Position numbers and translations under genes: made by a program
Notes under the pieces: generated by a model
Told to the model about the DNA's origin: nothing
Seen by the model: only the letters and a program-made list of their open reading frames with translations
Database searches by the model: none
Source of the DNA: Candidatus Saccharimonadales bacterium
GTDB lineage: Bacteria; Patescibacteriota; Saccharimonadia; Saccharimonadales; 2-12-FULL-41-12
Direction: 5' to 3'
DNA length: 64,000 bases
Assembly (NCBI GenBank): GCA_041600715.1
Contig: JBFIJM010000002.1
Span: forward strand, 5,770 to 69,769
Part shown: one piece after another, positions 21,701 to 51,775 of the stretch
How positions within the stretch are numbered: position 1 is the first letter of the stretch
Layout: the number at the start of each line of letters is the position of its first letter

Positions 21701-23454
21701 GGGATATTCAGGCGGCAATGATTAATATGCTCTCTGAGTCTGACATAGCGAAAGATTCAGTTCAAGGAAAGAAGTTGATTGCTGACACATTAAAAAATGT
21801 AATGCCAGCTATGGGGTCTATCCTTAAGAGTGAGGTAGGCAAAAAGTCTAATAACCCCGAAATGGAGCAGTACTATGAGGAGTTTAAGGCAGATGGAGCT
21901 AAGACTGGGTGGTATCATGCAAAAGATTCTTCAGGTGTAGCTAAAGATATTCAAAACATAATAGCCCTACAAGAAGCAGGAACCTTCTCGCCAAGGCAAG
22001 CTGCAAAAGCCTGGAAGTCTACAAAGAATTTTGTCGAGGGAGTAAATACTGCTGTTGAGAACGCAGTTAGGCTCTCCACATACGTAAGTGCCAGGAAAAA
22101 TGGAGTAAGCAGGTCTGATGCGGCAGTTCTAGCTAAAGAGCTTACCGTAAACTTTAACAGAAGTGGAGAGTGGGGAACCGTAATGAACTCAATGTACTTA
22201 TTCTTTAACGCATCTGTTCAGGGTACTGCTAGGTTCGCAAAGGCAATGCTTACTCTGAAGAAAACAGTTAATGCTGATGGAGACACAGAGTACGGGCTGA
22301 ACAGGGGTCAGAAATTAGCAGGGGCTATGGTAGCCTTTTCCTCAATGCAAACATTAATAAACCAGGCTATATCTGATGATGATGAGGATGGGGAGTCTTT
22401 CTACAGTAAGATTCCTGACTATGAGAAGGAGAGAAATATGATTATAATGAATCCTAATGGTAGAGACTATTTTAAAATTCCGCTGCCTTATGGGTTCAAC
22501 ATTTTTAGTAACGCAGGAACTATGCTTACCGAGGTGTCAACAGGAGAGAGAGAGGTTGGTGATGGAACTCTATTTATGATAGGATCAATAATAAACTCAT
22601 TTGTTCCAGTTTCATTCTCTAGCAGTAATGATTGGGACAAGAAAGTTGTAAAAGGAGTTACACCGACTGTTATGAAGCCATTCATTGAGCTTGCCGCTAA
22701 TGAAGATTATTTCGGTAGTACAATATATAATGAGAATTTACCTTTCGGTGCTAAGAAACCTCAATCCTCTATAGGAAGGAGGTCAACGTGGAGTGGGTAT
22801 AAAGACTTAGCAGAATTTTTAAATGAAGCTACAGGAGGAAACGAATATGTAAGTGGAAAGATAGATATTAACCCTGATAAAATAGCTCACATCTTCAAGT
22901 TTATGTCTGGTGGTACAGGTAAGTTTGTAGGTAGAACAGTATCTAGTGCTGGGGTTGTTTTCGACAAAGCAAGAGGAATACCTTCTGAGCTTGAGATGAG
23001 AAAGGTTCCTTTCGCTAGGGTTGTATATGGAGAGCCTAGCAAGTATGTGGATCAGACTAGTTATTATGACCGAAGAGATGAGATTGGTCAGATAGCGGAA
23101 GAGTACAAAAACGCAACCTTCCAAGAAAAGAAAGACCCTAAATTTAAGGGGGTCAAGAACCTAGCAAACCTAATAAAGGTTACAGACAAGAAGCTGAAGA
23201 GTTTAAGGGCTAAAACAGACGCAGCTAATAACATGGAAGACCCTATAAAAAGAGCTATGACTCTTAATGATATAGAGAAAAAGGAGAAGACGACATATTC
23301 CAATTTCAATAGAGAGTATAATAAGTATTCTGAGAAAGAGAAAGTTAAGACTGTTTTCGCACCAAAAAGAGGGGGAAAATCATCAGGAGGTGGAAAAACA
23401 AAGTCTTCTGGGTATGGTTCAAGTAAAGATTTTAAATCCTCAAAAGGGTTTTAA
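15763..23454 (+). CDS. giant virion protein (2563 aa), putative ejection/internal (gp16-like or polyvalent) protein
   Basis: 7.7-kb uninterrupted ORF. Has a duplicated N-terminal Y-x-LG-x-FEEFE-x-K motif and about 600 aa of K/E/A/P low complexity (APKKEAPKK). The C-terminal ~1100 aa are of normal composition. Confidence 0.8.
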   Translation: MATDSKTRLLYDAVSKDYDLGTFEEFEAKLQSPDKRQAFFDGVGARYNLGSFEEFESKVKKKEETQPRDFSALAEGIGRGVEARSKAIQEEQKEVPQEAQPFPELSEERDLSTPAAKPSRSMSGLDSPIEEVVEAPGEDLLPTEVALPSESTSVQAPIIPEEQALEGADPLFMGGEMLRKKEEDIVSKRQQKLREETFKRTMNIEGRRGFPIEEGDIPKTQEELDILSGAAKNYEILITSKLEEHVPEDLKLKAAYVEREREIINQIKSGELSKEDSTKARAKLIEINKQLLSSDNNKKLFNPVTGETVDQDKAPVEAIEYDGMVKNLVENKYSDIEDAYQASEKAIHKYDYYDEELDKPSGYLNLTYRDLSDPIKRASLLASNQFVDEQILDKSKLLKERWIDSKANVEAISRAIMVNEDPSQIERGFGGGAGFTESVEKGFMEAIDMGEQVTSTEGDFATRFVGVVRDAGKDKILTKAQVANTEQAFAEKLGYGVGASIPIMAEIAVTTALTEGIATEAVVAKNIKKIKDAFGTSKAGKLFGNTIEQGVKGYASFAPTSETGATGVGEGVAQGVMDTFLPEKLIGGKYGKLLNYIIRTVGGGTGETIQEVSGQYFDALAENGYDARGAFYDAFGRTPEERWENLALIGTTSLMFSGVFNSARLVMTKDALEEEIENGNIPEEDIPAAQEIINTMEEKIDSEEAADTPKVAPVVEEEDVAEEVAPTEEIQGVVDEIKEIDAKLDESKGVMKSIFRSTKKEKELEELYSKRRKLDDRLWKEFGEVATSEDFDEVDRLALELEEGKESGKWSEKEIEQKNKELWDKRYELRDSVLERTIKEKKSEPKAEAPKKKPTKKTKEDAVQERKTEEVPVQPEARVGEAVEPGRKVQEEEVEPVKEKEAEEARGVVEPGEVKDIERRRKDSLHIVTQADLDRGEDVGITEKDGLFRGDYYSSADEYGNVRIASVIGTLKEVQDHLNAEYDAELASLESSEVKGKPKVEAPKKEAPKKETKAPKADLKKVEEVEEPSKAPAKEFTVQEITKAPKKIEGKSAYEFEDTEGKRYIVGITRGNKKVWVVSSNEDGSLPDPGTHRSAKAAEKWMKDNVGKPLKEAAPKKEVKKPIKPIKISEVSPEPKKPVKVKPTEPTKPAKEQSVEAQEISNELSALKDEHAKLLDEGRKGGANIILSKNLAKKEAEIKKAEKALKTQLTKDAKAAKKTAEAPKKEAPKKDLPQKIEDEVAQIKKDRAAKEIKAKEEREARKEAQKKKAEKKEAPTKSLVDEVNRVESEIESYTADIEDKQNEIKTERENLKDELKTLKDKKDKIKKSKMSKAKKEEALEDVDAEIQDLKDDTADLIEVYKDEVKEAKSEITKLNKEKGKVEAEVSKALEEAKSDSEKVGDLIAEAEKEEKAEKAEVAKKKTLKKPVKDTKESLMEDLSNIDPSEAPFTLFARAKGLGITDDPEFSKAYIEKAKAHSKYSAEQKSKVDEEEDAIYEDIEEGEFGFEEEDFGELFEGEDPSTPEGKDSIKKMLDDLDNDLRDFGEGTLGMNMPVVVARAIVKAMKAAVSTATSILDIINAGIKQMKTTSWYKKASPKNKAAAVANVATNIGVAIDETRQVKIPNPLNKSKPIVMTIPESLDGMIDAFNQRIVDKFYDIRKAQRSVEKRKGSVSDKANFDKAEVLLHGKASNDLKIFEGKVEKLAKDMAKRNVSQQELSDYMYARHAQERNEYIRDNIDPKNHSGSGMTTSEANAILNSLSPEQITNLDALADQVYGFAEDTRNNMVKFGLWSEKNADNLRGLYNNYVPLMGFDADESFGNEYIDLGQALSVKGKEGMRATGRTTKAANVIANIISQHSNSIIRGRKNEAMQSLLFLVKDNKEIGHVIHPKINLDTKKGFNSKGELTDIPIRPEQNKNYVGVKIGGQQFYIKFKNDRMAKVVNAANIEKTNIINKTVGRFNRFLSSTMTSYNPEFVLTNFSRDIQAAMINMLSESDIAKDSVQGKKLIADTLKNVMPAMGSILKSEVGKKSNNPEMEQYYEEFKADGAKTGWYHAKDSSGVAKDIQNIIALQEAGTFSPRQAAKAWKSTKNFVEGVNTAVENAVRLSTYVSARKNGVSRSDAAVLAKELTVNFNRSGEWGTVMNSMYLFFNASVQGTARFAKAMLTLKKTVNADGDTEYGLNRGQKLAGAMVAFSSMQTLINQAISDDDEDGESFYSKIPDYEKERNMIIMNPNGRDYFKIPLPYGFNIFSNAGTMLTEVSTGEREVGDGTLFMIGSIINSFVPVSFSSSNDWDKKVVKGVTPTVMKPFIELAANEDYFGSTIYNENLPFGAKKPQSSIGRRSTWSGYKDLAEFLNEATGGNEYVSGKIDINPDKIAHIFKFMSGGTGKFVGRTVSSAGVVFDKARGIPSELEMRKVPFARVVYGEPSKYVDQTSYYDRRDEIGQIAEEYKNATFQEKKDPKFKGVKNLANLIKVTDKKLKSLRAKTDAANNMEDPIKRAMTLNDIEKKEKTTYSNFNREYNKYSEKEKVKTVFAPKRGGKSSGGGKTKSSGYGSSKDFKSSKGF

Positions 23455-31884: not shown

Positions 31885-32763
31885 TTAAATATACATAGAA
31901 TCTTCGAGCTCTTGCAAGTATTCCCTAGATAATATTGCAATTTTCTCCATCTTCTTATCAATCTCTGCATCGAAGTAGGTTATCTTCTCCACGATTCTTT
32001 CCTTTCCAGGTATCTCTACAAAGGATTGAAACATATCAATAGTCTTCTCATCGGAGTCGGCATTGACCACAACATCGTTCTCTACTAGCATCTCAAGGAA
32101 GTACTTCTCCTCATAGCAGTAGTACTTAATGATCTCTACCTTCCTCCAATCAGGGATAACCTCTCCACCCCACTTCCATAGCTCTCCATATAGGGTTCTT
32201 CCTATCTCCTTGGGTAGCATACTAAGGGCAATGGCTGAGGTAGTCCACTCCTTCTTGTTCCATAGTCTCATGTAGACTCTGTTCTGATACTCGTAGATGG
32301 TCTTCAGTGGCTCTTCAGGATCAGGCAAGGTGTCAAGAGACCAAGACACTTTGGTGTCATATCCTTCAACGATGTCACACTCCCCGGTGAAGTACTCGTC
32401 TTCTCTTCTCTCCTTGTTGTTGGTGAACACCGTATCATGGTGTAGGGATAGCCAATCTATCGCTTCCTCCTCCAGCTCTATACCTTTAGTCAGGTACTTG
32501 GAGTTAATCTCTCTACGCCTCTTAAACTTGACCTCTCTACGAAGTTTCCGTAGTATAGTCTTGGCTCCTGTAGATAGGGTTACTGAGTCTCTCTTGTTGA
32601 TAAGGTCTTCAAGGGTCTCTGCTTGCTTCTCTGTCAGCTTCTCCTTAGCTTGGAGTGTAGCTATCATCTCCTTCTGCTTGTCTGTAATATCTTTGGCTCC
32701 TGCCATTAGATCACCGAAACCTGATGCTCGGAATTTGTAGGTACTAAAGTCGTATTTTTCCAT
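31885..32763 (-). CDS. PD-(D/E)XK exonuclease (YqaJ/lambda-Exo-like)
   Basis: 292 aa. KGIELEEEAIDWL and TGECDIVEGYDTKVS fit the G..E..A and D...(D/E)xK motifs. Adjacent to a putative annealase. Confidence 0.5.
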   Translation of the reverse strand: MEKYDFSTYKFRASGFGDLMAGAKDITDKQKEMIATLQAKEKLTEKQAETLEDLINKRDSVTLSTGAKTILRKLRREVKFKRRREINSKYLTKGIELEEEAIDWLSLHHDTVFTNNKERREDEYFTGECDIVEGYDTKVSWSLDTLPDPEEPLKTIYEYQNRVYMRLWNKKEWTTSAIALSMLPKEIGRTLYGELWKWGGEVIPDWRKVEIIKYYCYEEKYFLEMLVENDVVVNADSDEKTIDMFQSFVEIPGKERIVEKITYFDAEIDKKMEKIAILSREYLQELEDSMYI

Positions 32764-32765
32764 AT

Positions 32766-33485
32766 CTATTTCTTTTTTTCTTTCATAGTTAATTCATAGT
32801 GTTTTTTAGAATATGCGTTATTAACTTCTCCATCAAGGAATCCAATGCAGTCATCTGAAATCTTCTGAAGCGAAGCCACTGTCTTCTTGGAGGCTATCAT
32901 CTTAAGTAGTCGTTGCTTCATGTGAGCCTTAGCCTTATCCTCTTCTGGAACCTCTTGCTTCTTCTCGAAGTGGTCTCTCATAATGTCAGCGTAGTCATCT
33001 GTCTCAGCTCTGAATATCTGTCCAATCTTCTTAGATGCGTTCAGGATAGCAAAAGACTCTGCTCCTGGGACATTTCGGTGGTTCCACTTAAAAGGCCCGG
33101 AGGCAGGAATCAAGGGTACTGAGGCTGTCCCTGAGTACGTCTCTCTAGTCTTCAGTATAGGATGAGTCACTACAATATTCACAAAGTAGATAAGCTGTCC
33201 CTCAATGTATAGAGGAGCGAATGGTTGCTCTATACCGTAAGAGTCGTAGATAGCTAGGAGCATTTGCTCTACTACCTGTAGGGGGATGTATTTATTACCG
33301 AACTGTTGGTTGGTCTTTATGAGTTTCGGTGGTGGCTGTTGGTTCAGGATCCGCTTAAAATCCAATAATTCATGCTCCTCTTGGTCTTTCTTTGACCGGT
33401 ATGCGTTTTTGTGTTTGGGTCTCTTCTGTGTGAGTCGAGACACCTCTGACACCACATCCTTGAATAGGTCTAATTGTTCATTCAT
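32766..33485 (-). CDS. putative single-strand annealing protein (Rad52/Sak-like)
   Basis: 239 aa. The call rests mainly on being directly upstream of the exonuclease, plus a weak NKYIPLQVVEQMLLAIYDSYG resemblance to Rad52-type N-terminal motifs. Confidence 0.35.
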   Translation of the reverse strand: MNEQLDLFKDVVSEVSRLTQKRPKHKNAYRSKKDQEEHELLDFKRILNQQPPPKLIKTNQQFGNKYIPLQVVEQMLLAIYDSYGIEQPFAPLYIEGQLIYFVNIVVTHPILKTRETYSGTASVPLIPASGPFKWNHRNVPGAESFAILNASKKIGQIFRAETDDYADIMRDHFEKKQEVPEEDKAKAHMKQRLLKMIASKKTVASLQKISDDCIGFLDGEVNNAYSKKHYELTMKEKKK

Positions 33486-33750
33486 ATTTTAGGTTTTAAA
33501 TAATCTCTCTGTCCGTTACCATTGGATAAAGCTCAACTGACATAAGGTAATTAATCCCCATTACAGTTTGTACAACTCTAAATGCGTAGAAGCAATCCCA
33601 TCCGATAAACAACAACCTTGGAAGGTTACATCATTTTACCGCCACCCTTATTAATTGCCTATGAAATCCTAAGACCATTACAATATTAGATTTTGGTGAT
33701 GCCGTTTATCTTCAAGCAGAGAGATTAAAATTATAATTTGAGTACGTAAT

Positions 33751-35340
33751 CTATTTACGCTCCTCTATTTCGGTGATAATACAGTTGCCCATAAGTATCA
33801 TACTAGCTACTGAGGAAGCATTATTTAATGCCGAAATCTCAACCTTAGCTGTATCTAGGATGCCACGTTCAATCATATCACAGTACTCTCTCTTGTTGAG
33901 GTCGTATCCTGACCCCTCTTCCCAATTAAGCACTCCATCAAGGATTACTTCACTAGGGAGCCCTGCGTTCTTCATTATCTGCTTTAATGGAGCATACAAG
34001 GCTTCTCTAACAATATCAATTCCTGATTGCTCACCTTTAGTCTTACCCTTCATCTTGTTCAACACCTTAGAGGCGTGAACTAGAGAGGAACCTCCCCCAG
34101 GAACAACCCCCATCTCAAGGGCAGATCGTGTAGCTGCAATAGCATCTTCAATTAAATCTTTCTTTTCTGCTACCTCACTTTCGGTAGCACCACCAACGTA
34201 GTACACTGCGATACCACCATCTATGTTGGCTAGTCTATTCTCTACCATCTCTTTAGCGTGAGGGTCTGACATCTCTTCAAGCATTAGCTTCACAGCCTTT
34301 ACTCTAGCGTTAATCAACTCCTTGTCTCCTCTACCACCGATAAAGGTTGTTGAGTGCCTGTTGATAACCACCTTATCAGCTTCTCCTAGCATCTCTAGGG
34401 TGCAGGACTCAAGATCAGTACCAACGGTCTCGCTGACCACTGTACCACCTGTAATTAGGGCTACATCTTCTAGCTCATCTCTCATGGAGCCTCCGTATCC
34501 TGGTGCATGAATACACGCCAAGGGAAGGTTAGCTTTGACCTTATTCTGAATGATAGTGGCAAGAGCCTCATTGTTAACGTCCTTAGCTATAATCAGTACT
34601 CCTCTTCCAGCTTTAGTTGCCTCTTCAAGGATATTGATTAGTGGAGCGATACCTGAGATTTGCTCATCATATAGTAGGATGTATGGGTTGGTTAGTACGC
34701 ACTCCATCTTCTCTGAGTTTGTAATGAAGTAGGGGGATAAGAATCCTCTATCAATCTTCATCCCTTCAACCACATCAATGTATGAGTCCATAGACTTGGA
34801 TTCGCTTACGGTTACTACACCATTCTCTTTTACCTTTTTGATGGCTCCTGCAATGTTCTTTCCTATCTCTGAGTTGTTGTTGGCTGAGATGGTGGCTACC
34901 TGCTCAATCATATTTGATTTTCGGTCTACCTTAACAGCCATTTTGTCGATAGCTTTGGTCACTTTAGCGACAGCAGCTTCAATACCTCTCTTGATGTCGG
35001 TACGGCTACTGCCTGACTCAATCATATTAACCCCCTTCTGAACAAGCTCTCTTGTTATCACACAATAGGTAGTTGTACCATCACCAGCTTCTTCTGCTGT
35101 CTTCTTGGCTCCTTCGATTAGTAGTTGAGCCCCTTGGTTCTCTTGAGCATCCTCTAGGATTACTCTACGTATTGAGTAGTACCCATCCTTAGTAACCTTT
35201 GGTGATCCATAGGGTTGTTGGATGATGGTATAGTTACCTTGTTGACCCATTGTCTCAGCTGCTACATTAGCTACTACCGAAACTCCGGATACAGATTTCT
35301 TTCTTGCTTCTGATTCAAATATTACCTTAGTCTTTATCAT
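33751..35340 (-). CDS. groL: chaperonin GroEL (Cpn60)
   Basis: 529 aa. PKVTKDG, ENQGAQLL and AGDGTTT match GroEL equatorial-domain signatures along the full length. There is no C-terminal GGM tail. Confidence 0.9.
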   Translation of the reverse strand: MIKTKVIFESEARKKSVSGVSVVANVAAETMGQQGNYTIIQQPYGSPKVTKDGYYSIRRVILEDAQENQGAQLLIEGAKKTAEEAGDGTTTYCVITRELVQKGVNMIESGSSRTDIKRGIEAAVAKVTKAIDKMAVKVDRKSNMIEQVATISANNNSEIGKNIAGAIKKVKENGVVTVSESKSMDSYIDVVEGMKIDRGFLSPYFITNSEKMECVLTNPYILLYDEQISGIAPLINILEEATKAGRGVLIIAKDVNNEALATIIQNKVKANLPLACIHAPGYGGSMRDELEDVALITGGTVVSETVGTDLESCTLEMLGEADKVVINRHSTTFIGGRGDKELINARVKAVKLMLEEMSDPHAKEMVENRLANIDGGIAVYYVGGATESEVAEKKDLIEDAIAATRSALEMGVVPGGGSSLVHASKVLNKMKGKTKGEQSGIDIVREALYAPLKQIMKNAGLPSEVILDGVLNWEEGSGYDLNKREYCDMIERGILDTAKVEISALNNASSVASMILMGNCIITEIEERK

Positions 35341-35597
35341 TTCTTTCTAATTACAGCCAATATGTTAGGCTCGTTAAACATTTTTAATCCACCAGGAAAA
35401 TCTGTCCCTGAGTGCTTACCATAAAATACTCTATCTCCTTCATCAAGGGTTGATGTTGGCCCAGAAGAAACCACAACCCCCTGCTGTGGCATCTCTTGGG
35501 CGGTCTTCGGTATTATAAGTCCTCCGGAGGTTTTGGTATCCTTATCATCAGGCTTTACCAATACCCTATCGCTTAATGGTTCAATTATTTCACTCAT
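35337..35597 (-). CDS. groS: co-chaperonin GroES (Cpn10)
   Basis: 86 aa. PLSDRVLVKP...SGGLIIP...QQGVVVSSGP...EGDRVFYGKHSGT...ILAVI is a canonical Cpn10 pattern. 4-nt overlap with groL. Confidence 0.85.
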   Translation of the reverse strand: MSEIIEPLSDRVLVKPDDKDTKTSGGLIIPKTAQEMPQQGVVVSSGPTSTLDEGDRVFYGKHSGTDFPGGLKMFNEPNILAVIRKK

Positions 35598-35968
35598 ACT
35601 GCTCGTTTTAACATTGTTTTATATTCCCTTATTGCTTTTGTAAGCTCAGGCACTCTTGATCTTGTTGATTTTATTTCGTCTAGGTGAATGACTCCTTTCT
35701 TGGTGATGATGTACTTTGTGTCCTTGTTGATTGGCATATAGTCATCCTCATCGTAGTGTGTTGTTGTTCTTTCGTGGAATGAGCAATCTCTTACACTTAC
35801 TACGTGTCTAGCCCTCATGTAGTCAAGTAGCTCAAAGTAATCCTTGTTCCCTATTTGTAGGGTTGCCATAACGGTGGGCTTATTGTATTTCCTGTATAAG
35901 GTTTCAAACATGAAAACCTTTTCATTCCACTCTTTCTCTTTGAATCCTATTGGTGCTGTCTGCTTCAT
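35594..35968 (-). CDS. hypothetical protein
   Basis: 124-aa ORF with a 4-nt overlap to groS. Confidence 0.6.
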   Translation of the reverse strand: MKQTAPIGFKEKEWNEKVFMFETLYRKYNKPTVMATLQIGNKDYFELLDYMRARHVVSVRDCSFHERTTTHYDEDDYMPINKDTKYIITKKGVIHLDEIKSTRSRVPELTKAIREYKTMLKRAV

Positions 35969-35980
35969 ATCTTAGGTTTT

Positions 35981-36023
35981 AAAAAGCAGTGGGGAGAGGG
36001 TCAACTCGATTATTCCCCACTGC
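35981..36023 (-). terminator. intrinsic terminator downstream of the SSB gene
   Basis: Perfect 10-bp stem: GCAGTGGGGA (35986-95) pairs with TCCCCACTGC (36014-23). It is followed on the minus strand by TTTTT. Confidence 0.65.
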
Positions 36024-36030
36024 TCATTGA

Positions 36031-36741
36031 TTAAAAGGGTAGGTCATCCATCCCGTTTGTTTCAGGAGCTTTTTTTGCAGCTTGCTCTTCAGCGTACTGC
36101 TGCTCCATAGCTAGGATGTCCTCTTCTGAGGATGGTGTTGGGGTTTCTATGGCTCCAATACCTTTAGCCCATTGCTCAAAGTGTTTTGCAAGGAAGTTGG
36201 TTTGCTTGTCGCTGTTCCATTTCTTCTTACCTGCTACCTCAGTAACTTCCCATTCAGGCATACTACCTGGGTTGTCTTTGGTCCATTTGTAAGGAACCTT
36301 GTCTCCATCCCATCCCTTGTTCTTTTGGTATATGGTAACTCCTGTTTGTTTCTTTCCGTCACTTTCAAAGCTGTATGGTCTGATTGTCACCTCAAGTTCA
36401 GGATCAATGTTCGGTGTTCTAAGCATTACTGAACGACCATAGCTAGACTCTAATGGTATCTGCACAGTAAAGGCTTCATCTCCATCTACGAGTTCTAGTA
36501 CTAATTTACTACCGAAATCCCCTGATGTGTCAATAGAGGCTTCTCTTATGAACCCATCTACAGACTCGTAGTATCTTTCGATAACGGTCTTGACTAGGTT
36601 TCCTTGTTTGTCTTTGATTTCTCTTGCGATTGTTACTTGTTGTCCACCTACTTCGTGGTGTTCCTTGTAACGTCTTGCTAGTTGCCCACCTACGATATTG
36701 AGGTAAGTCTTTGATGTGTGGTTTGAGTCATTTAGTCCCAT
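36031..36741 (-). CDS. single-stranded DNA-binding protein (T7 gp2.5-like size and tail)
   Basis: 236 aa, ending in the acidic/aromatic tail ...ETNGMDDLPF. Has its own upstream gap and terminator, and sits beside the helicase. Confidence 0.6.
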   Translation of the reverse strand: MGLNDSNHTSKTYLNIVGGQLARRYKEHHEVGGQQVTIAREIKDKQGNLVKTVIERYYESVDGFIREASIDTSGDFGSKLVLELVDGDEAFTVQIPLESSYGRSVMLRTPNIDPELEVTIRPYSFESDGKKQTGVTIYQKNKGWDGDKVPYKWTKDNPGSMPEWEVTEVAGKKKWNSDKQTNFLAKHFEQWAKGIGAIETPTPSSEEDILAMEQQYAEEQAAKKAPETNGMDDLPF

Positions 36742-36789
36742 GTTGTTTTTGGTTTTAGTTGTTTATAATAATTGTTGTTTTTAACGAGG

Positions 36790-36797
36790 TCAAATAT
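36790..36797 (-). promoter_or_regulatory. candidate -7 box TATATTTG for the SSB gene
   Basis: The plus strand reads CAAATATA in the 87-nt gap, 49 nt upstream of the ATG at 36741. Confidence 0.3.
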
Positions 36798-36828
36798 ATT
36801 AAATAATTTTTAATATTCTATTCTTTGT

Positions 36829-37059
36829 TCAGGAATTTATTTGTCTTAGTTTCTCTACCTCTTTCCTGAGATCCCTGTTCTCTGATGATACCCTTGTGTA
36901 GGCATTTTCCAGGTTCCTAAGTACATTCTTGGAGTGATTGAAGGCATCCATCTTCTTAAGGAGCCTATTGTCATCTGTTTGTGAAAACTCATACTTAATC
37001 AGCTCAAGCTGTGAATACAGGAAGAGGTGTGCTTTGTTTATTTCTAGTAGTATATCCAT
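36829..37059 (-). CDS. hypothetical coiled-coil protein
   Basis: 76-aa ORF ending 2 nt from the helicase gene. Confidence 0.55.
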   Translation of the reverse strand: MDILLEINKAHLFLYSQLELIKYEFSQTDDNRLLKKMDAFNHSKNVLRNLENAYTRVSSENRDLRKEVEKLRQINS

Positions 37060-37061
37060 AG

Positions 37062-38006
37062 TTAGTAGGGTAAATCGTCTTTGTCTGAGTATAAATCATC
37101 AACCTCAGCATCAAAGTCATTGTTCAATTCTAGGGGAGGTAGCTCTAAATCGTTTTTAACGGTGTTATTAAGAGGGTTCTCCCCATTTATGGTAAATCCT
37201 AGCCCGGAGTTAAAATCGAGCATTACAGGGCTGTTTATGTCGCTTACAGAGCCTCCTGTCTCTGTGTCTTTCACCTTCCTCGAAAAAAGTAGCGTTTTAT
37301 ATTGCATCAGAGGATGTCCTACGAGCCTATGTATTGTCCAAAATCCATCACAACGGTTCCCGAAAGGTTGTCCACCTTCGCTACTACTCTTGGACGGGGG
37401 GAAGGGGTATCCCTCGAACTCATGTCCTGCTGGGTACGTCCTCCTGGCTGACTCACTGACTACGTGGGTGTTTACGTACAGGCTCTTCTTCGTCCTGTTG
37501 CAGAAGTCTCTTGATTCGTTTAGGAAGTCGTAGTTGGCAGCGTGTGTGTACTCTCTATTCATTCCGGTATACGGATCAACAAGGCATCCGTTGTAGTCTC
37601 CATCTTCAAATATCTTGAATAGTTCTGTTGATTTGTAGAAGTCGTTCTTTACGAATGTGAACCATCCCTCTATCATTAGCTCATACCTGAACACCTCTCC
37701 AAGGGTCAGTTCGTTTAGTCTCTTGCCTGTCATCCACTGAATCATCTGTCTGACGAGCTGCCCAGGTTGGTTCTCTCCTGAGTAGATGATCCATTTCAGG
37801 TTGTGCTTGTACGATAGGCAGAGGTAGTACCAGAGAACTGTAACAGTCTTCCCAACATTGTCAAGCCCATTGATGATGGTTAGTTCTGACTGCTTGAAGC
37901 GTATAGCGTTATCAATTTCGGAGATACCTATCCCTTTTCCCATGGAGATTTTACCTTCGTGATATTCCTGTAGGTATTTCGATACCTCTTCTTTGTTCAC
38001 TATCAT
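37062..38006 (-). CDS. RecA/DnaB-fold replicative helicase-like ATPase
   Basis: 314 aa. Walker A-like INGLDNVGKTV, DnaB C-terminal-domain-like layout, and an acidic C-terminal tail ...DDLYSDKDDLPY. Confidence 0.6.
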   Translation of the reverse strand: MIVNKEEVSKYLQEYHEGKISMGKGIGISEIDNAIRFKQSELTIINGLDNVGKTVTVLWYYLCLSYKHNLKWIIYSGENQPGQLVRQMIQWMTGKRLNELTLGEVFRYELMIEGWFTFVKNDFYKSTELFKIFEDGDYNGCLVDPYTGMNREYTHAANYDFLNESRDFCNRTKKSLYVNTHVVSESARRTYPAGHEFEGYPFPPSKSSSEGGQPFGNRCDGFWTIHRLVGHPLMQYKTLLFSRKVKDTETGGSVSDINSPVMLDFNSGLGFTINGENPLNNTVKNDLELPPLELNNDFDAEVDDLYSDKDDLPY

Positions 38007-41626: not shown

Positions 41627-41920
41627 TTAGAAAGAAATATTTCCGGGGAGCTTAATCTCATCCATGTACTGTTGAGGTTTCATGTGCCTTAGCTCATGCT
41701 CAAGACGCAGATTTAAGCATCCTAATTCTGATAGTGAGTCGTTATAGGCTTGAATATCTTTCAGGTCGAAGTTGCTCTGAATCATGAACTCTCTTGCATG
41801 GGCAAGCTTGGTGCTGGTATCTTCTATCTGCTGTCGCAGTAGCTTAATCTTAGATTTTCTACCAAAGTATGCCACTTTAATATGATTTATGAACGACCAC
41901 AACCGCATTGACCTTGACAT
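41627..41920 (-). CDS. hypothetical protein (start uncertain)
   Basis: 97-aa ORF overlapping the upstream gene by 44 nt. An in-frame GTG at 41875, 1 nt after that gene's stop, is an alternative start. Confidence 0.5.
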   Translation of the reverse strand: MSRSMRLWSFINHIKVAYFGRKSKIKLLRQQIEDTSTKLAHAREFMIQSNFDLKDIQAYNDSLSELGCLNLRLEHELRHMKPQQYMDEIKLPGNISF

Positions 41921-42188
41921 TGTAGAAGAATTTGTTTGAGTGGTCAGTGAAATTTTCTCCTAGCCCTATGTCGGACTTGAGCATTTCGTATTGATCTTCT
42001 GGAACATTCTGTATTTCGATTACGAACTTGTCCTGGGGGAAGCGTTCAGAGAAGGATGATAGTTCGGTAGTAATAGCGTAGAAGTCATTATACTTGTTCA
42101 GCTCTTCTCTATACAGTGGCATTATACTTTTTATTACTCCGTTCTCTCGGCTCACAACTCTTTGTCTTTCAAATTGATAGATCAACAT
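41877..42188 (-). CDS. hypothetical protein
   Basis: 103-aa ORF. Confidence 0.55.
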   Translation of the reverse strand: MLIYQFERQRVVSRENGVIKSIMPLYREELNKYNDFYAITTELSSFSERFPQDKFVIEIQNVPEDQYEMLKSDIGLGENFTDHSNKFFYNVKVNAVVVVHKSY

Positions 42189-42192
42189 CTTG

Positions 42193-42405
42193 CTAATATA
42201 AGGAATTAATCAATAGGAGCTGAATAAATTCTTTCAACAACCTTAGCTCGTTATCGTAATCCCCCTGAACAAGACTATCTCCATCAACATCCTTTTGGGT
42301 GATGTAGCCTTCTTCTGGTATAATCTTGTTGTGCTTCCACTTGATAAGATCTGACTCAATCAAGATGAATGTATCGTTCTCTGTTACTGTGATGTTTCTC
42401 TGCAT
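42193..42405 (-). CDS. hypothetical protein
   Basis: 70-aa ORF. Confidence 0.5.
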   Translation of the reverse strand: MQRNITVTENDTFILIESDLIKWKHNKIIPEEGYITQKDVDGDSLVQGDYDNELRLLKEFIQLLLINSLY

Positions 42406-42415
42406 GGCGTTTGGT

Positions 42416-42634
42416 TTAGTGTTTATAATACTTGTTTACAATTCTTTCAGACTCTTCTTGGTGTTTTGAGTAATCGCTAAAAAAGTTATCATTGTAACTC
42501 TCTCCATAAGAAGCGACAAACCCACGAACCAACTCTTTAAAGGTTTTAGCATTTAGCTTTTCACCTCCACGAAATAAGTGCTGCATAACTGCCGCCTGTG
42601 CTGTGTCTTCCGTTATCTTCACTAATAATCTCAT
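42416..42634 (-). CDS. hypothetical protein
   Basis: 72-aa ORF. Confidence 0.5.
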   Translation of the reverse strand: MRLLVKITEDTAQAAVMQHLFRGGEKLNAKTFKELVRGFVASYGESYNDNFFSDYSKHQEESERIVNKYYKH

Positions 42635-42640
42635 AATTTA

Positions 42641-43900
42641 TTATTTTAGGTTTAACTTACTGATTATTGCTGACAGCACCTCTCTCGTAATGCTGTTTCC
42701 GGCCTGTTTGTAGGCCTGGGTGTCGCTGACAGGTATCTTGAACGTGTCAGGGAAGCCTTGTAGTCTGAAGCACTCCCTTGGGGTGAGCCTTCGGATTCTG
42801 CTTTCAGCCCTAATAACAGGCTGTCCACTTCCATCTTCCCTTGCTCTAGCAGGTATGGTGGGGGCTGTACCGTCAGCTATCTTCCTAAATCCCTCTCCAT
42901 CCTTATGTGTTCTCCACGTACCGCTTTCGATAACTCCCTGCTCACATCCAGTATCTAATGTTTGAGCGATACCCTTACCAACCCTTCCTCTACGAGTAGT
43001 TGATGCTAGGACACTGAAGTTAAGGCTGTCTCCTTCCTTCATCTCGTCATACCCCTTAGAGTTGTTGGTTTTAATCTTCACAAGGTCGTCAGCACCACCA
43101 CCACCGAACTTCAAGGCACTCATGTTGTCCTTTTCAGGATCATGAAACTTAGCTCCAAAGCCATTTCCTTTAGCCTTATTTCGCTCATCATACTCAACCA
43201 ACCTATTAACCACCTCCTCTTTTAGGAAGTAATTATCTCCAGGGGAGTCCTCTAAGACATCTTTTAGCTTAGTTGTTAATGGAACCTCTTGAGGCCAAGA
43301 GAAAGTGTTGTCAGCGTCATCTCTGATGCCCACAATGAATACTCTTTCCCTATTTTGGGGAATACCGAAGTTTTTAGTGTTGAGCACCCGATAATAAATA
43401 TGATAGTGTACAGCTTCCTCTATTGGGAAGATGATAGGGTTTCCATTGACTGACTTACCACCAAGGTAGTTGAGCCATGTCTGAAATGTCTTACCCACCT
43501 GGGATGAGTCCTTGCTATCCCTGTCGTGAGACAATAACCCCTTGACATTCTCAAAGATAAAGAAGCGTGGGTTGTTTTCCTTTATGAACTCATATGAGTT
43601 ATAGAACAATATACCCCTACCACTTTCGTCTTCAGTTCCCTTCCTATTCCCTGCCATACTAAACGCTTGGCATGGTGGAGAGGTCATGTAGATGTCTAAT
43701 GGTTCCGATGGGATCTCCCTATCGTATACGTTCTCCGGGTAGTACTTAGGCTCTCCATAGTTGGCTATGTATGTTTGCCTGGCGTACTTATCCATATCAC
43801 AAGAGAACTCTGTCTCATAACCTATGCCTGACAGCATTAATGCTTGGTCAAAGGCTCCAACTCCTGAGAAGTCTGATCCTACTTTGATTTTCTTTTCCAT
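42641..43900 (-). CDS. DNA (cytosine-5)-methyltransferase
   Basis: All core motifs are present: I FSGVGAF, IV SPPCQAFS, VI ENVKGL, VIII QNRERVFIVG, IX RRLTPRECFRLQGFPD and X GNSI. Confidence 0.9.
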   Translation of the reverse strand: MEKKIKVGSDFSGVGAFDQALMLSGIGYETEFSCDMDKYARQTYIANYGEPKYYPENVYDREIPSEPLDIYMTSPPCQAFSMAGNRKGTEDESGRGILFYNSYEFIKENNPRFFIFENVKGLLSHDRDSKDSSQVGKTFQTWLNYLGGKSVNGNPIIFPIEEAVHYHIYYRVLNTKNFGIPQNRERVFIVGIRDDADNTFSWPQEVPLTTKLKDVLEDSPGDNYFLKEEVVNRLVEYDERNKAKGNGFGAKFHDPEKDNMSALKFGGGGADDLVKIKTNNSKGYDEMKEGDSLNFSVLASTTRRGRVGKGIAQTLDTGCEQGVIESGTWRTHKDGEGFRKIADGTAPTIPARAREDGSGQPVIRAESRIRRLTPRECFRLQGFPDTFKIPVSDTQAYKQAGNSITREVLSAIISKLNLK

Positions 43901-43927
43901 AGTTTCGGTATTAAATTTTCAATAAAG

Positions 43928-44044
43928 TTAACTATTACATTTTACTTCTATGAGAAGGACTATGAACGCAATTATCACAGTGATATTAAACACCCTTCTA
44001 AATACAGCCCATAGCCATTCTATCCATCTCTTTAGATCACTCAT
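43928..44044 (-). CDS. 38-aa membrane mini-protein (below cut-off)
   Basis: My translation is MSDLKRWIEWLWAVFRRVFNITVIIAFIVLLIEVKCNS*. Its start overlaps the upstream stop (ATGAGTGA). Confidence 0.3.
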   Translation of the reverse strand: MSDLKRWIEWLWAVFRRVFNITVIIAFIVLLIEVKCNS

Positions 44045-44585
44045 CGTCTAATTTTTTATATGAATCCATTCGTTCAATCTTATCCAGGTACTTGAACAGT
44101 TTGCCCTGCGTCTCTGTGTCTACATCCTCCATGTTCGCTCTAATCCTCTCGAATTGGTTGATGATTAACCAACCTCGCACCTTATCGAGTAGCATTTGCT
44201 CGAACTCATCTCGGTCTAGCCCTAGTGCTTCCTTGTCCTTCCATCGGACTACAATAAAGCCCTTGATGTTCGGTGTTGCACGAAGGCTTACCCTGTATCT
44301 TTCAAACCGATGTAGCCTGGGGTATATCTTCTTAATACCGAAATAGTTCTCAAGTTGTGTGATACTGTCAAAGAACCTTGTGATGTCGTAGCTGTGCGGA
44401 TCAATGATTGCATACCGGTTTCCTATCTTCCTACCAGCATTGCTCTTCACATTACGCATAGCTCTCTTACGTTGCTTTGCACGTTTCTTATTCAGGATTT
44501 TCTGTTCGTTCCTACGCCTGAACTTCTCTAAGCTAGAGAAACCGTAGTCATCCTCATCTAGGAGGGCATCGTGTCGTCTTATCAT
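44037..44585 (-). CDS. hypothetical basic protein (start trimmed)
   Basis: The ORF track gives 44037..44672, but its first 29 codons read through the conserved intergenic element. I prefer the Met at 44585 (MIRRHDALL...). Confidence 0.55.
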   Translation of the reverse strand: MIRRHDALLDEDDYGFSSLEKFRRRNEQKILNKKRAKQRKRAMRNVKSNAGRKIGNRYAIIDPHSYDITRFFDSITQLENYFGIKKIYPRLHRFERYRVSLRATPNIKGFIVVRWKDKEALGLDRDEFEQMLLDKVRGWLIINQFERIRANMEDVDTETQGKLFKYLDKIERMDSYKKLDDE

Positions 44586-44637
44586 TTGTTTAAAATTTAG
44601 GTTAATAATTAATTGATAGTGATTGTTCGGTGTTAAA
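44586..44637 (-). promoter_or_regulatory. conserved leftward intergenic element, copy A
   Basis: Gene-sense sequence is TTAACACCGAACAATCACTATCAATTAATTATTAACCTAAATTTTAAACAA-ATG. Confidence 0.55.
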
Positions 44638-44997
44638 TTAATTTTGTTCTTCCAACCATTTGTAGTGGTCATCTATTATTTTCCTGTCAGGTTTTTTATA
44701 CCAAAATAGAAACTCAATAAGTATTTTACACAACATTTGTTGTCGTGTATGGTAATCAAACCATTGAAATGTAACCCTAAACTTTTGGTATTTATGTTCC
44801 ATTTTCCAGTGATTTCTACCAAGCTCCAAATAGACCCCTGTTTCTTGTTCTATTATTTCAGCTATATTCATTAGCTCTGAGTAAGACTCATGATACTTAA
44901 CGCCATCCCTTTCATCCTCAAGGAACTCCTTTATTACCTGAATCCCCTCAGTTGACGGACTAAAATGATCTTTTTTTGTTGTCTTTAATTTTTTCAT
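44638..44997 (-). CDS. hypothetical protein
   Basis: 119-aa ORF. Confidence 0.6.
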   Translation of the reverse strand: MKKLKTTKKDHFSPSTEGIQVIKEFLEDERDGVKYHESYSELMNIAEIIEQETGVYLELGRNHWKMEHKYQKFRVTFQWFDYHTRQQMLCKILIEFLFWYKKPDRKIIDDHYKWLEEQN

Positions 44998-45002
44998 GTC
45001 TC

Positions 45003-45257
45003 TTATTTTACTTTAATGAATATATCAGTACTTGTTTTATTCCAGTCAACCCTAGCTAGGTTGCCTTTCTGTAGGGCTAAGTACTCTTTAGCCACTACTG
45101 GGTCAATCTTTTCGTTCTTAGCATAACGGACTCCTGTTATCAGCGTAAATGTTTCCACACCATTGGTATCCATAACGGATTTTATTGCCGTTGATCCCAT
45201 TCCGTTTGTTTTGGCGACTGCCATTTCTTGCTCTAATTGTTTTAATGTGTCAATCAT
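45003..45257 (-). CDS. hypothetical protein (start trimmed)
   Basis: The ORF track gives 45003..45314. Its N-terminal 19 codons are read-through of the repeat element, so I prefer the Met at 45257 (MIDTLKQ...). Confidence 0.55.
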   Translation of the reverse strand: MIDTLKQLEQEMAVAKTNGMGSTAIKSVMDTNGVETFTLITGVRYAKNEKIDPVVAKEYLALQKGNLARVDWNKTSTDIFIKVK

Positions 45258-45307
45258 GATTTTAAAATTTAGGTTAATAATTAATTGATAGTGATTGTTC
45301 GGTGTTA
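45258..45307 (-). promoter_or_regulatory. conserved leftward intergenic element, copy B
   Basis: Gene-sense sequence is TTAACACCGAACAATCACTATCAATTAATTATTAACCTAAATTTTAAAATC-ATG, nearly identical to copy A. Confidence 0.55.
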
Positions 45308-45679
45308 ACAACAATTACAGTCATCTATATCTTTTCCATTACGACATAGAGTACCATCTAATAAATCCTCCTTATTTTCGTTATACCACTTAATAAATTC
45401 TACTACTACCCTGTATAGGTCTCCAATATTACTGAATGACCTAATTGGTATCTTGTCATCAAGAATGGAATCATTATCCATCCATCCACCTACCACATCA
45501 ATACATTTGTGATAAACAGGCATTAACCAATCCCAAGAGGTGTCAAATAGTAAATCATCAAATGTATTATCTTTTGTGTAGGATAGCTTTAAATTTCCCT
45601 CATTGTCATACCATCCTATCGGGGTGTTTTGCATCCCCATAAATTCTGCTATTAGCTTATTGTTTTCTGTTGTTTTCAT
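45305..45679 (-). CDS. hypothetical protein (start trimmed)
   Basis: The ORF track gives 45305..45736. The Met at 45679 (MKTTENNKLIAEFMG...) is preceded by AAGGAGGA at 6-nt spacing and avoids a 41-nt overlap. Confidence 0.6.
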   Translation of the reverse strand: MKTTENNKLIAEFMGMQNTPIGWYDNEGNLKLSYTKDNTFDDLLFDTSWDWLMPVYHKCIDVVGGWMDNDSILDDKIPIRSFSNIGDLYRVVVEFIKWYNENKEDLLDGTLCRNGKDIDDCNCC

Positions 45680-45695
45680 AATTAGTCCTCCTTGT

Positions 45696-45932
45696 TTATG
45701 TTGTGTAAATAACTGTATCAATACCTTTCTTCTCATCTACAAAGAAAGCTGCACCCCCATCATTCCCTTCATCATCTTTCTGAAGCACCATAAAACTGCC
45801 GTCATCAAAGATTATTGCCAATGGATTACTGTGCCACCCCATATCTTCCATTTCTTCAGACGTAAGGTATCTTGTCTCCTTAATAGTTTTTCCTACTAAG
45901 AGTTCTGACATTTTCTTATCATGTTTACTCAT
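45696..45932 (-). CDS. hypothetical protein
   Basis: 78-aa ORF. Confidence 0.55.
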   Translation of the reverse strand: MSKHDKKMSELLVGKTIKETRYLTSEEMEDMGWHSNPLAIIFDDGSFMVLQKDDEGNDGGAAFFVDEKKGIDTVIYTT

Positions 45933-45956
45933 ATTCTAATGCCTGTTTCCAGGTCT

Positions 45957-51773: not shown

Positions 51774-51775
51774 AG

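Follow-up and report, generated by a model that had tools for sequence, protein, structure and literature searches.

Organization of the chaperonin locus

The window analysed here, a stretch of 64,000 nucleotides, carries terminase, tail and virion genes; the major capsid gene was not found in it. On its minus strand lies a tightly packed string of genes in the order helicase-like gene, SSB-like gene, 124-aa ORF, groES, groEL, 239-aa gene and exonuclease (Table 1). A first-pass annotation had reported an 86-aa Cpn10 and a 529-aa Cpn60 overlapping by 4 nt, and both ORFs were recovered as described, on the minus strand, with a junction reading AGA AAG AAA TGA / ATG ATA AAG. The assignment of this phage-borne pair to a replication/recombination module was likewise borne out by its neighbours, which include an exonuclease, a helicase-like gene and a gene whose product has an SSB-like tail.

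Table 1. Features of the groES-groEL region (positions within the window)
Feature	Position	Strand	Remarks
groES-like co-chaperonin gene	35337..35597	(-)	86 aa; TKTSGGLIIP mobile loop intact, roof hairpin trimmed; Pfam Cpn10 and PHROG 3188 (co-chaperonin GroES)
groEL-like chaperonin gene	33751..35340	(-)	529 aa, without C-terminal GGM tail; Pfam, NCBIfam PRK00013, PHROG 5725
ATGA stop/start overlap, groES/groEL	35337..35340	(-)	Read from sequence
124-aa ORF, function unassigned	35594..35968	(-)	ATGA overlap with groES; weakly conserved at this place in 5/7 clade loci
236-aa protein with acidic tip ...MDDLPF (SSB-like)	36031..36741	(-)	Upstream in the same gene string; translation
Conserved 239-aa protein and 292-aa exonuclease (recombination genes)	31885..33485	(-)	Directly downstream of groEL; exonuclease is PHROG 5715 (1.2e-28)

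The 4-nt overlap had been read as a sign of translational coupling. It is compatible with co-translation of the two genes, but ATGA overlaps are commonplace in this genome, occurring at 4 of the 21 junctions between genes of the 11.9-kb copy L001, and the 124-aa ORF overlaps groES in the same manner, so that the arrangement is not peculiar to this pair. In related loci of the viral clade described below, the groES/groEL junction is a 4-nt overlap (L020 and L022), a 20-nt overlap (L021) or a 13-nt gap (L019). A promoter and terminator scan returned counts equal to the shuffled expectation, with nothing above chance, and it is the gene packing that points to a groES-groEL transcription unit. An Rfam search of positions 33300-36900 gave no match. 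The CIRCE heat-shock operator was not found anywhere in the window, and the GC content is even, at about 0.42.

Among the clade loci, the 124-aa ORF is 19-27% identical and retains a common motif in alignment, E-x-D-Y-G...ITKKG...YKxML, while Pfam and PHROG searches with it gave no match. The 236-aa protein matched PHROG 19605 alone, a family of unknown function; in L022 a 206-aa protein ending in DDLPF lies directly upstream of GroES. Downstream of GroEL, the loci L005, L019, L020, L021 and L022 have a gene of 230-240 aa and then one of 290-340 aa.

The GroEL protein

The Cpn60 scored 230 bits against Pfam Cpn60_TCP1 (PF00118, cutoff 34) and 568 bits against NCBIfam subfamily PRK00013 (cutoff 397); it passed three further GroEL subfamily models and fell narrowly under the cutoff of the strict equivalog TIGR02348 (564 versus 582 bits). 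The AGDGTTT and PKVTKDG motifs previously cited for it are both present, and its best PDB sequence matches are GroELs (E = 1e-145 to 1e-120). Examination of its structure and apical residues, which the first-pass annotation had proposed as a check, also supported the assignment. The AF2 model (pLDDT 81.9, pTM 0.77) matched solved GroEL and mtHsp60 at full length (Foldseek TM 0.81-0.91 over 523-526 columns), with the GroEL-ADP-gp31 complex 2cgt among the structural matches, and predicts the equatorial, intermediate and apical three-domain fold. Nearly all of the apical binding residues are kept (F199, S201, Y203, F204, I234, L237, L259 and I263), the complete string reading F S Y F I L L I Q in the window and Y S Y F L L L V V in E. 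coli; V264Q is the sole non-conservative change and is found clade-wide. The R197-E386 pair is also retained.

Disabling substitutions in the ATP site, which had been named as evidence that would speak against a working chaperonin, were not found among the residues audited: the ATP/Mg/K and catalytic residues T30, G32, K51, D52, D87-G-T-T-T91, D398, G414-416 and D495 are all identical to those of E. coli. Two substitutions adjoining the site, P33Q and A480L, are both clade-wide.

The differences from cellular GroEL are concentrated elsewhere. As the first-pass annotation had noted, the GGM repeats are missing: the protein ends in ...ITEIEERK, matching E. coli residue 528, three residues past residue 525, and the tail is absent from 16 of 16 clade members. 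The GroEL of Thermocrinis also has no GGM tail, and the tail is therefore not a strict criterion of membership. Only two of the six cavity-wall acidic residues are present in the window (KDNPAE versus EDEDDE), whereas all 18 cellular sequences have six of six, and this remodelling of the wall was found throughout the 16 clade members. In addition, the inter-ring acidic residue has been relocated in the clade from position 461, non-acidic in all 16 members, to position 463, acidic in 15 of them, a state that differs from all 18 cellular sequences. P33Q, V264Q, the loss of four of the six wall acidics and the changes of E461 to a non-acidic and of S463 to an acidic residue could alter the mechanism of the chaperonin. 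The substitution E434K was dropped as a meaningful change, position 434 being highly variable among cellular GroELs.

The GroES protein

The 86-aa protein scored 63.5 bits against Pfam Cpn10 (PF00166, cutoff 21.1) and matched all 14 NCBIfam GroES models, each under its cutoff (the best at 64 versus 136 bits). It is about 50% identical to Bacteroidota GroES. Its mobile loop, T-S-G-G-L-I-I-P, aligns to S-A-G-G-I-V-L-T of E. coli, with the Gly-Gly and the hydrophobic tripeptide kept. The earlier description of a full Cpn10 pattern needs correction in one respect: the roof hairpin is cut to a segment of about 6 residues, whereas 43 GroES sequences of the Bacteroidota type have 11 and E. coli has about 16. 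Against M. tuberculosis Cpn10, as against GroES of E. coli, the roof region falls in an alignment gap, and the roof-less Cpn20 N-domain ranks first among the PDB matches. We considered the deletion as a purely viral innovation and rejected this idea, as the GroES of Bacteroidota itself lacks about 5 of the residues that E. coli has in this region; within the clade, the GroES of L005 has a roof segment of Bacteroidota length. The single-sequence AF2 model had a pLDDT of 36.8, too low for fold assessment, and a large-database protein search with the window GroES returned the query itself as the only match.

Phylogenetic position, co-inheritance and selection

The window GroEL falls into a viral clade of 16 members that was monophyletic in 98 of 100 neighbor-joining (NJ) bootstraps and never nested within a cellular group. 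Near-identity to host groESL, which the first-pass annotation had regarded as the mark of a recent passive capture, was looked for: identity to cellular GroEL ranges from 41 to 47%, and none of the 185,579 species genomes scanned gave a value above 47%. Scans of metagenome contigs and genome contigs, saturated by cellular GroELs at 42-47%, listed no clade members among their matches and show that no cellular genome scanned carries a GroEL of this clade. A scan of IMG/VR with the clade alignment recovered distant GroELs only (<=42% identity) and zero clade members. At the DNA level, megablast found nothing similar to the locus among GenBank phages. A tblastn search with the window GroES matched only cellular-type GroES in doubtful 'phage' records, and it missed the annotated GroES of the Flavobacterium phages elemo and immuto and of Cellulophaga phage phi40:1 because these are too divergent.

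Each of the seven clade loci examined has a GroES gene ahead of GroEL, and every copy scores above the Pfam Cpn10 cutoff; in two relatives, L005 and L007, an ORF is inserted between the two genes. The pairwise divergences of GroES and GroEL are correlated (r=0.84, 15 pairs), showing a pair that is co-inherited as a unit and co-evolving. Synonymous sites are saturated (pS about 0.7), while pN is 0.15-0.26 for GroEL and 0.28-0.36 for GroES; both genes evolve under purifying selection. The clade module is also present on 68-72-kb phage contigs, and the window TerL matches only phages of Flavobacterium, Cellulophaga, Tenacibaculum and Maribacter, at 27-33% identity. Taken as a whole, the sequence data indicate a marine Bacteroidota-type phage with its own intact, co-evolving GroES-GroEL.

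Comparison with known viral and bacterial systems

Viral GroES/GroEL operons have been described at scale, in both gene orders, by Marine et al. 2017 (ISME J; PMC5649160), who remarked on a podovirus/Cellulophaga-phage affinity of virioplankton operons, and also by Nishimura et al. 2017 (PMC5332604). In the former study, GroES occurred on 40% of the GroEL-bearing virome contigs, with the canonical order on 63 of 133 paired contigs; viral co-chaperonins with roof-hairpin deletions were also reported, and variability was greatest at sites facing the inside of the cavity (PMC5649160). In gene content and order the window pair agrees with this class of viral GroES>GroEL operons, both genes lying on a viral contig in canonical order. 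In the GroES>GroEL clusters of Marine et al. 2017 the conserved mobile-loop Gly is replaced by Asn or Ser, and the Gly-Gly kept in the window argues against membership of its GroES in clusters 15/18. Small heat-shock protein (sHSP) genes lay upstream in 25 of their contigs, whereas a Pfam search found none in the window.

Among cultured phages, all five Bacteroidota phage groups that we examined carry both genes (Cellulophaga phi40:1, Flavobacterium immuto and elemo, Bacteroides DAC16 and Maribacter Panino). The view that a matched GroES is rarer still than a phage GroEL is therefore not sustained, given these groups, the seven of seven clade loci and the virome figures above; nor is the position of the pair among early genes unusual, since phi40:1 and immuto share it. 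A close parallel is provided by phi38:1 and phi40:1 (Pervagoviridae, Callevirus), podoviruses of about 72 kb from marine Flavobacteriia, in which, as in the window, GroES precedes GroEL within a replication module. Their TerL is matched by that of the window. The order in phi40:1 is exonuclease, Cpn10, ORF, GroEL, exonuclease, adjoining the DNA polymerase; an exonuclease follows GroEL directly, comparable to the exonuclease downstream of groEL in the window. The two genes of phi40:1 are separated by an ORF, whereas those of the window overlap directly; the layout with an inserted ORF in L005 and L007 is the one described for phi38:1 by Marine et al. (PMC5649160). A DNA-level match to phages of the phi38:1/phi40:1 type was not found, their GroELs are only about 33% identical to that of the window and form separate NJ branches joined in 2 of 100 bootstraps, and the mobile loop of phi40:1 Cpn10 is degenerate (EGSGMTF, compared with SGGLII). 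The Flavobacterium myovirus immuto (polA, GroES, GroEL) shares the canonical order beside a replication gene and a GroEL that is 40% identical. The Flavobacterium podovirus elemo has a TerL among the nearest cultured relatives of the window TerL and a 35% identical GroEL, but its GroEL precedes GroES, the pair lies in the tail/lysis region and GDSTTC replaces GDGTTT.

Compared to the bacterial proteins of E. coli and Bacteroidota, the window proteins are full-length and collinear (41-47% for GroEL, about 50% for GroES), with the same gene order, ATP site, apical hydrophobics and mobile loop. They differ in the missing GGM tail, two rather than six of six wall acidics, P33Q, V264Q, an acidic residue at 463 instead of 461, a GroES roof 5 residues shorter than that of Bacteroidota and the lack of a CIRCE operator. 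T4 gp31 and RB49 CocO are likewise phage lids without the roof hairpin (PMC5649160). These phages encode the lid only and use host GroEL, however, while the phage in the window encodes both proteins, and its GroES is clearly a Cpn10 by sequence. The Pseudomonas phage proteins EL gp146 and OBP gp246 are GroEL homologues with a conserved ATP site, as in the window, but are only 20-25% identical; their apical residues diverge, and a GroES partner is not known for them.

The novelty of the pair is thus limited, as Flavobacteriia phages and ocean viromes were already known for such pairs, and earlier claims of rarity and novelty were overstated. The chaperonin pair opens no new kind of biology. What is new is a well-supported, hitherto unnamed clade among the phage GroES/GroEL systems of marine Bacteroidota phages, in which the pair is old, inherited as a unit and under selection.

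Proposed function and alternative explanations

The most likely explanation, to which we assign a probability of roughly 0.8, is that the locus encodes a functional group I chaperonin system of old acquisition, in which a GroEL-type ATPase ring and its own co-evolved GroES-type lid would carry out ATP-driven encapsulation and folding of ordinary-sized proteins. The tight packing on the minus strand suggests that the pair is most likely produced together with the replication genes, and early production would allow the large oligomer to assemble ahead of late virion protein synthesis. The genes were probably acquired long ago from a Bacteroidota-like groESL and appear to have been passed on vertically and together among phages of about 70 kb of the marine Flavobacteriia type that form one clade. 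The clients would most likely be phage proteins of ordinary size (<= about 60-70 kDa); capsid, portal or tail subunits are candidates, as the cases of T4 gp31/gp23 and of lambda, with its groE dependence, suggest by analogy.

Other assignments of the clients have to be weighed. The pair might serve no dedicated phage client and instead add chaperonin capacity, or replace host GroESL after host transcription shut-off, by folding aggregation-prone proteins in general; such a role would differ from the preferred reading in client identity while the mechanism would be the same. The apical binding surface, nearly identical to that of cellular GroEL, fits this possibility, as does the presence of GroEL in only 36 of 78 related Flavobacteriaceae phage genomes sharing phi38:1 structural proteins, which indicates that the gene is accessory and not strictly required for assembly (PMC5332604). 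However, the chamber lining is remodelled in all 16 clade members while the 18 cellular sequences keep their six acidics, and long retention under purifying selection with a co-inherited lid suggests a role beyond that of the host system; we therefore consider a generalist role possible but less than probable. Far more doubtful is the earlier proposal that the chaperonin serves to fold the 1769-aa and 2563-aa virion proteins. At about 195 and 280 kDa, these exceed several-fold the cage capacity of about 60-70 kDa (PMC9950496), which leaves domain-wise or trans-ring help as the only physically possible route. About half of the related phages with phi38:1 structural proteins have no GroEL (PMC5332604), and GroEL-bearing phages of other groups are numerous (286 records). 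In favour of the proposal, Elemovirus phages have, besides GroEL/GroES, two giant structural proteins, one of 1493 aa (41802-46283) and one of about 3694 aa (48718-59802), and a tail-less floor and a trimmed roof could widen or open the cage; we nevertheless rate it as very unlikely.

The two proteins might also act separately, with the phage GroEL working without a lid, as a holdase or single ring, and the phage GroES redirecting host GroEL like T4 gp31. The characterised phage GroEL homologue EL gp146, for which a non-encapsulating, double-to-single ring cycle has been proposed, neither encapsulates nor binds E. coli GroES (PMC7185714), an observation that counts against the preferred reading. 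Phages with a co-chaperonin alone are common (PMC5649160), an inserted ORF splits the genes in two clade relatives, the inter-ring contact residues are unlike those of all cellular sequences, and the phage mobile loop, being similar to GGIIIP of Bacteroidota GroES, might bind host GroEL. Against this, the EL-like and OBP homologues are just 20-25% identical with altered apical residues, whereas the window GroEL is within the 41-47% range of cellular GroEL and, by eye, gap-free against Bacteroidales GroEL at residues 459-465; furthermore, GroES is kept with GroEL in seven of seven loci and the two diverge in step. Uncoupled functions thus seem improbable. A recent passive capture of host groESL without a phage-specific role, or bacterial contamination of the assembly, is effectively refuted: some GenBank 'phage' records do hold cellular-type groESL (entries from Listeria, Staphylococcus, Salmonella and Acinetobacter), but here identity to cellular GroEL peaks at 47%, the proteins fall into a distinct and supported clade, the genes are embedded through ATGA overlaps among phage replication genes at a uniform GC of about 0.42, and the same module lies on 68-72-kb phage contigs.

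Within the preferred reading of a ring with its own lid, we tentatively suggest that the clade may represent a matched, re-engineered chamber. The GGM-less floor, the wall with two of six acidics, the roof-trimmed lid and the inter-ring acidic residue moved from 461 to 463 could together yield a larger, more open and near-neutral cage, possibly with altered ring-ring allostery, and maybe adapted to a single phage client while being orthogonal to host GroESL. If this is true, nature would have provided in this clade an experiment on the control of folding by cage charge and volume. A modest practical value lies in the compact, tail-less, charge-depleted GroEL and its roof-less lid, which offer a comparison for the effects of cavity charge and volume on folding.

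The comparisons also correct some database annotation: Bacteroides phage DAC16 and Maribacter phage Panino each have a GroES gene that carries no label there, and one member of the clade is labelled Promethearchaeota.

A chaperonin pair within the phage replication module

The window is phage DNA, and the chaperonin genes lie in a compact string of genes on its minus strand. Both open reading frames were found where the first-pass annotation had placed them, and the features that it had reported for Cpn60, namely the AGDGTTT and PKVTKDG motifs and the missing Gly-Gly-Met repeats (the C-terminus reads ...ITEIEERK), were all seen. Over its full length Cpn60 scored 230 bits in Pfam (cutoff 34) and 568 bits against the NCBIfam GroEL subfamily PRK00013 (cutoff 397), and it narrowly missed the strict equivalog TIGR02348 (564 bits, cutoff 582). 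Cpn10 scored 63.5 bits in Pfam (cutoff 21.1) and remained under every NCBIfam GroES cutoff. As had also been noted, the two genes overlap by 4 nt in an ATGA (groES ends AGA AAG AAA TGA, groEL starts ATG ATA AAG). The 124-aa ORF and groES share an ATGA overlap too, and in an 11.9-kb second copy of the chaperonin region 4-nt overlaps join genes at 4 of the 21 junctions; the arrangement is therefore general in the genome and does not set the pair apart. The number of promoter-like and terminator-like sites was no higher than expected from shuffling, an Rfam search of 33300-36900 gave no match, and no CIRCE operator was found in the whole window.

Coordinates of the chaperonin genes and other features of the window
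Feature	Position	Strand	Length (aa)	Assignment or place
Tail-fibre proteins	54-3043			phage hallmark
Virion protein	15763-23454	plus	2563	phage hallmark
Virion protein			1769	phage hallmark
Exonuclease	31885-32763	minus		last in string
Unnamed protein		minus	239	between groEL and exonuclease
groEL (Cpn60)	35340..33751	minus	529	Pfam, NCBIfam, PHROG 5725 'chaperonin groEL'
groES (Cpn10)	35597..35337	minus	86	Pfam Cpn10, PHROG 3188
ORF	35594-35968	minus	124	third in string, before groES and groEL
SSB-like tip (...DDLPF) protein	36031-36741	minus	236	second in string
DnaB-like/primase-helicase-like protein	37062-38006	minus	314	first in string
Large terminase	59626-61692			phage hallmark
DNA methyltransferase				within window

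Origin of the pair

The best GroEL matches among GenBank phages reached 44% identity (Bacteroides phage DAC16 and its relatives), and in a collection of 5.8 billion proteins the cellular GroELs begin at 46-47% (Aquificota, Bacteroidales and Capnocytophaga). A scan of one genome per species across 185,579 species, in which the top matches were mostly Bacteroidota, yielded no GroEL above 47% identity. Between the exact match and this cellular plateau fall 15 metagenomic proteins of 528-535 aa with 51-76% identity, all of which are missing the C-terminal tail. In a tree of 51 GroELs, built by neighbour joining only and with cellular sampling biased toward the best matches, these proteins and the window GroEL were monophyletic in 98 of 100 bootstraps and never nested in any cellular group, and only 2 of the 100 replicates joined them to the group of phi40:1, elemo and Panino. 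A recent capture of host groESL is thus effectively ruled out, as cellular identity tops out at 47% and the clade is distinct. One clade member, P0007 (NCBI MHA2009955.1; 67% identical to the window GroEL, longest contig 8.8 kb), bears the label 'MAG: Hsp60 family chaperonin [Promethearchaeota archaeon]'; since every clade locus examined has a phage context, the contig probably belongs to a phage and was wrongly binned with an archaeal MAG.

Six relatives were recovered with their genome context. They come from a TARA scaffold, from JGI and ENA contigs and from Logan assemblies, and include two phage contigs of 68.7 kb and 72.4 kb. In all six, the replication/recombination module that contains GroEL also has, upstream of it, a Cpn10 gene above the Pfam cutoff; this applies even to the copy that a scaffold gap truncates and to the one that lacked precomputed annotation. 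The two genes abut or overlap in four relatives; in L005 and L007 an inserted ORF of 101 aa or 163 aa separates them. Pairwise GroES and GroEL divergences were correlated (r=0.84, 15 non-independent pairs), as co-inheritance predicts; the window GroES shares about 50% identity with its Bacteroidota counterparts. Against the clade relatives, synonymous sites were saturated (pS about 0.7) and pN remained low (0.15-0.26 for GroEL, 0.28-0.36 for GroES), which indicates purifying selection on both genes.

Comparison with known phage chaperonins

The pair had been proposed to be rare, a premise that fails for this phage lineage. Both genes occur in cultured phages, IMG/VR contigs and viromes. A GroEL match was found in 286 of 50,697 GenBank phage records, including 68 of Flavobacterium elemo and 9 of Cellulophaga phages. 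Gene order varies: annotated GroEL then GroES in Elemovirus; polA, GroES, GroEL in Flavobacterium phage immuto; and, adjoining DNA polymerase in Cellulophaga phi40:1, exonuclease, hypothetical protein, Cpn10, 90-aa ORF, GroEL, exonuclease. Unannotated Cpn10 genes were detected just upstream of GroEL in DAC16 (87 aa, 76.6 bits; L184 2215-2478, gene 261) and downstream of it in Maribacter phage Panino (36 bits; L186 4128-4394, CDS0109); both are labelled hypothetical proteins despite exceeding the Pfam Cpn10 cutoff, as is the DAC16 GroEL. IMG/VR contigs whose GroEL is 40-42% identical to that of the window also carry GroES directly upstream. Marine et al. 2017 found GroES on 133 of 337 GroEL-bearing virome contigs, 63 in the order GroES>GroEL and 70 in the reverse, and described phi38:1 with the canonical order and a short ORF in between (PMC5649160). 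Nishimura et al. 2017 recorded GroEL in 36 of 78 genomes of a Flavobacteriaceae phage group to which phi38:1 and phi40:1 belong (PMC5332604). Taken together, the clade is distinct and well supported, and the accessory system that it carries is of a kind already known from phages. As the window TerL matches only Flavobacterium, Cellulophaga, Tenacibaculum and Maribacter phages (27-33% identity), the host is probably a marine member of Flavobacteriia.

Some database records call for caution. Cellular-type groES-groEL genes occur in 'phage' records of Listeria (LM 4-14-1, LM 4-11-1), Staphylococcus (SA 1306 Kay), Enterococcus, Salmonella (AFYI01000007, AGRM01000005) and Acinetobacter (MD-2021a), several of which are unannotated fragments or 500-kb bacterial contigs; these look like bacterial sequence filed as phage, inflating phage GroEL/GroES counts. 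In Elemovirus NC_055853, the 180-aa gp30 (L002 31199-31741) is labelled 'co-chaperonin GroES', a label that is probably wrong because the gene, directly upstream of the large terminase, occupies the position of a small terminase subunit; the genuine GroES is gp44.

Intactness and remodelling of the chamber

The window GroEL was aligned with its 15 relatives from the clade and with 18 cellular GroELs, that of E. coli among them. The ATP and catalytic residues (T30, G32, K51, D52, D87-G-T-T-T91, D398, G414-416, D495) and the R197-E386 pair are conserved, and the apical hydrophobic residues F199, S201, Y203, F204, I234, L237, L259 and I263 are retained, V264Q being the sole non-conservative apical change. 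An AlphaFold2 model based on the 16-sequence clade alignment (pLDDT 81.9) can be superposed on solved chains of GroEL and mitochondrial Hsp60 across 523-526 columns (TM 0.81-0.91). No disabling ATP-binding substitution is present among the residues checked. The 'full Cpn10 pattern' ascribed to GroES stood for the mobile loop (T-S-G-G-L-I-I-P) but not for the roof segment, which is trimmed to ~6 residues, compared with 11 in 43 Bacteroidota-type GroES and ~16 in E. coli; a single-sequence GroES model was unusable (pLDDT 37). This trimming happened within the clade, as L005 retains a segment of Bacteroidota length, GKGKPNEPLTVKVGD.

Several features distinguish all or nearly all of the 16 clade members from 18 cellular GroELs. 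Besides the missing tail and the substitutions P33Q and V264Q, cavity-wall positions 252/253/255/359/361/363 read K-D-N-P-A-E in the clade versus E-D-E-D-D-E in E. coli, with two acidic residues compared with six in all cellular sequences. At the ring-ring interface, position 461 is acidic in 18/18 cellular sequences and never in the clade, whereas position 463 is acidic in 15/16 clade members and 0/18 cellular sequences; the alignment at 459-465 is gapless (AGLEGSVV in Bacteroidales, AGLPSEVI in the window). Acidic wall residues and GGM tails reportedly influence folding rate and effective cavity volume (Tang et al. 2006, Cell), and T4 gp31 is reported to lack the roof hairpin, enlarging the cage for gp23 (Hunt et al. 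1997, Cell). The roof deletion in gp31 and CocO is stated by Marine et al., who also noted that many viral co-chaperonins miss this hairpin, that GroEL varies most at sites lining the cavity and that the cavity wall varies among viral GroELs (PMC5649160). At the six wall positions, other phage GroELs have anywhere from 0 to 6 acidic residues; wall variation is a general viral theme, and only the remodelling of the chamber has some potential for novelty.

Mode of action and possible clients

The observation of the gene pair is confirmed, and its interpretation is partly supported. The best-supported reading of these sequences is a functional GroEL ring with a co-evolved GroES lid. The two proteins would be made together with the replication genes, so that ring and lid would be ready ahead of the late proteins; expression timing, ring number, encapsulation and the clients are all predictions. 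A lid-independent holdase mode of the kind proposed for phage EL gp146 (PMC7185714) is less likely: at 41-47% identity, the window GroEL aligns collinearly with its cellular counterparts and is only 20-25% identical to the EL-like and OBP proteins, and GroEL travels with GroES at every clade locus examined.

For such a ring and lid, the 1769-aa and 2563-aa proteins proposed as clients are unlikely ones, because at roughly 195 and 280 kDa (110 Da per residue) they exceed a cage capacity of only about 60-70 kDa (PMC9950496) and because about half of the related phage genomes sharing phi38:1 structural proteins are without GroEL (PMC5332604). By analogy with T4 and lambda, mid-sized virion proteins are more plausible; the capsid gene lies outside the window.

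Other features of the locus

Over its C-terminal ~880 aa, the 2563-aa protein matches large phage proteins (PHROG 14770, E about 1e-184; PHROG 616, about 1e-165) and, more weakly, a DarB-like antirestriction family; it may be an injected multi-domain enzyme and not purely structural. The acidic tips of the 236-aa protein (...NGMDDLPF), the 314-aa helicase-like protein (...DKDDLPY) and, in the relative L022, a 206-aa protein encoded just upstream of GroES (3714-4334; ...EVDDLPF) resemble the C-terminal protein-interaction motif of SSB, which hints at an SSB-like hub among the replication genes; proteins with these tips matched no Pfam family. The 124-aa ORF, without a family match, shows weak conservation (19-27% identity) in the corresponding place in 5/7 clade loci, with a shared motif E-x-D-Y-G...ITKKG...YKxML, and some homologues have an N-terminal stretch resembling a helix-turn-helix. 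A 265-nt gene-free gap follows groEL (33486-33750), with no Rfam match or convincing terminator; its equivalent spans only 23-113 nt in four relatives (L019, L020, L021 and L005). GC and AT skews are negative over 32-54 kb and positive on either side, over 1-32 kb and beyond 54 kb. They flip sign at ~31.8 kb and ~54 kb, the two points where gene orientation switches; skew thus follows the coding strand in this genome.
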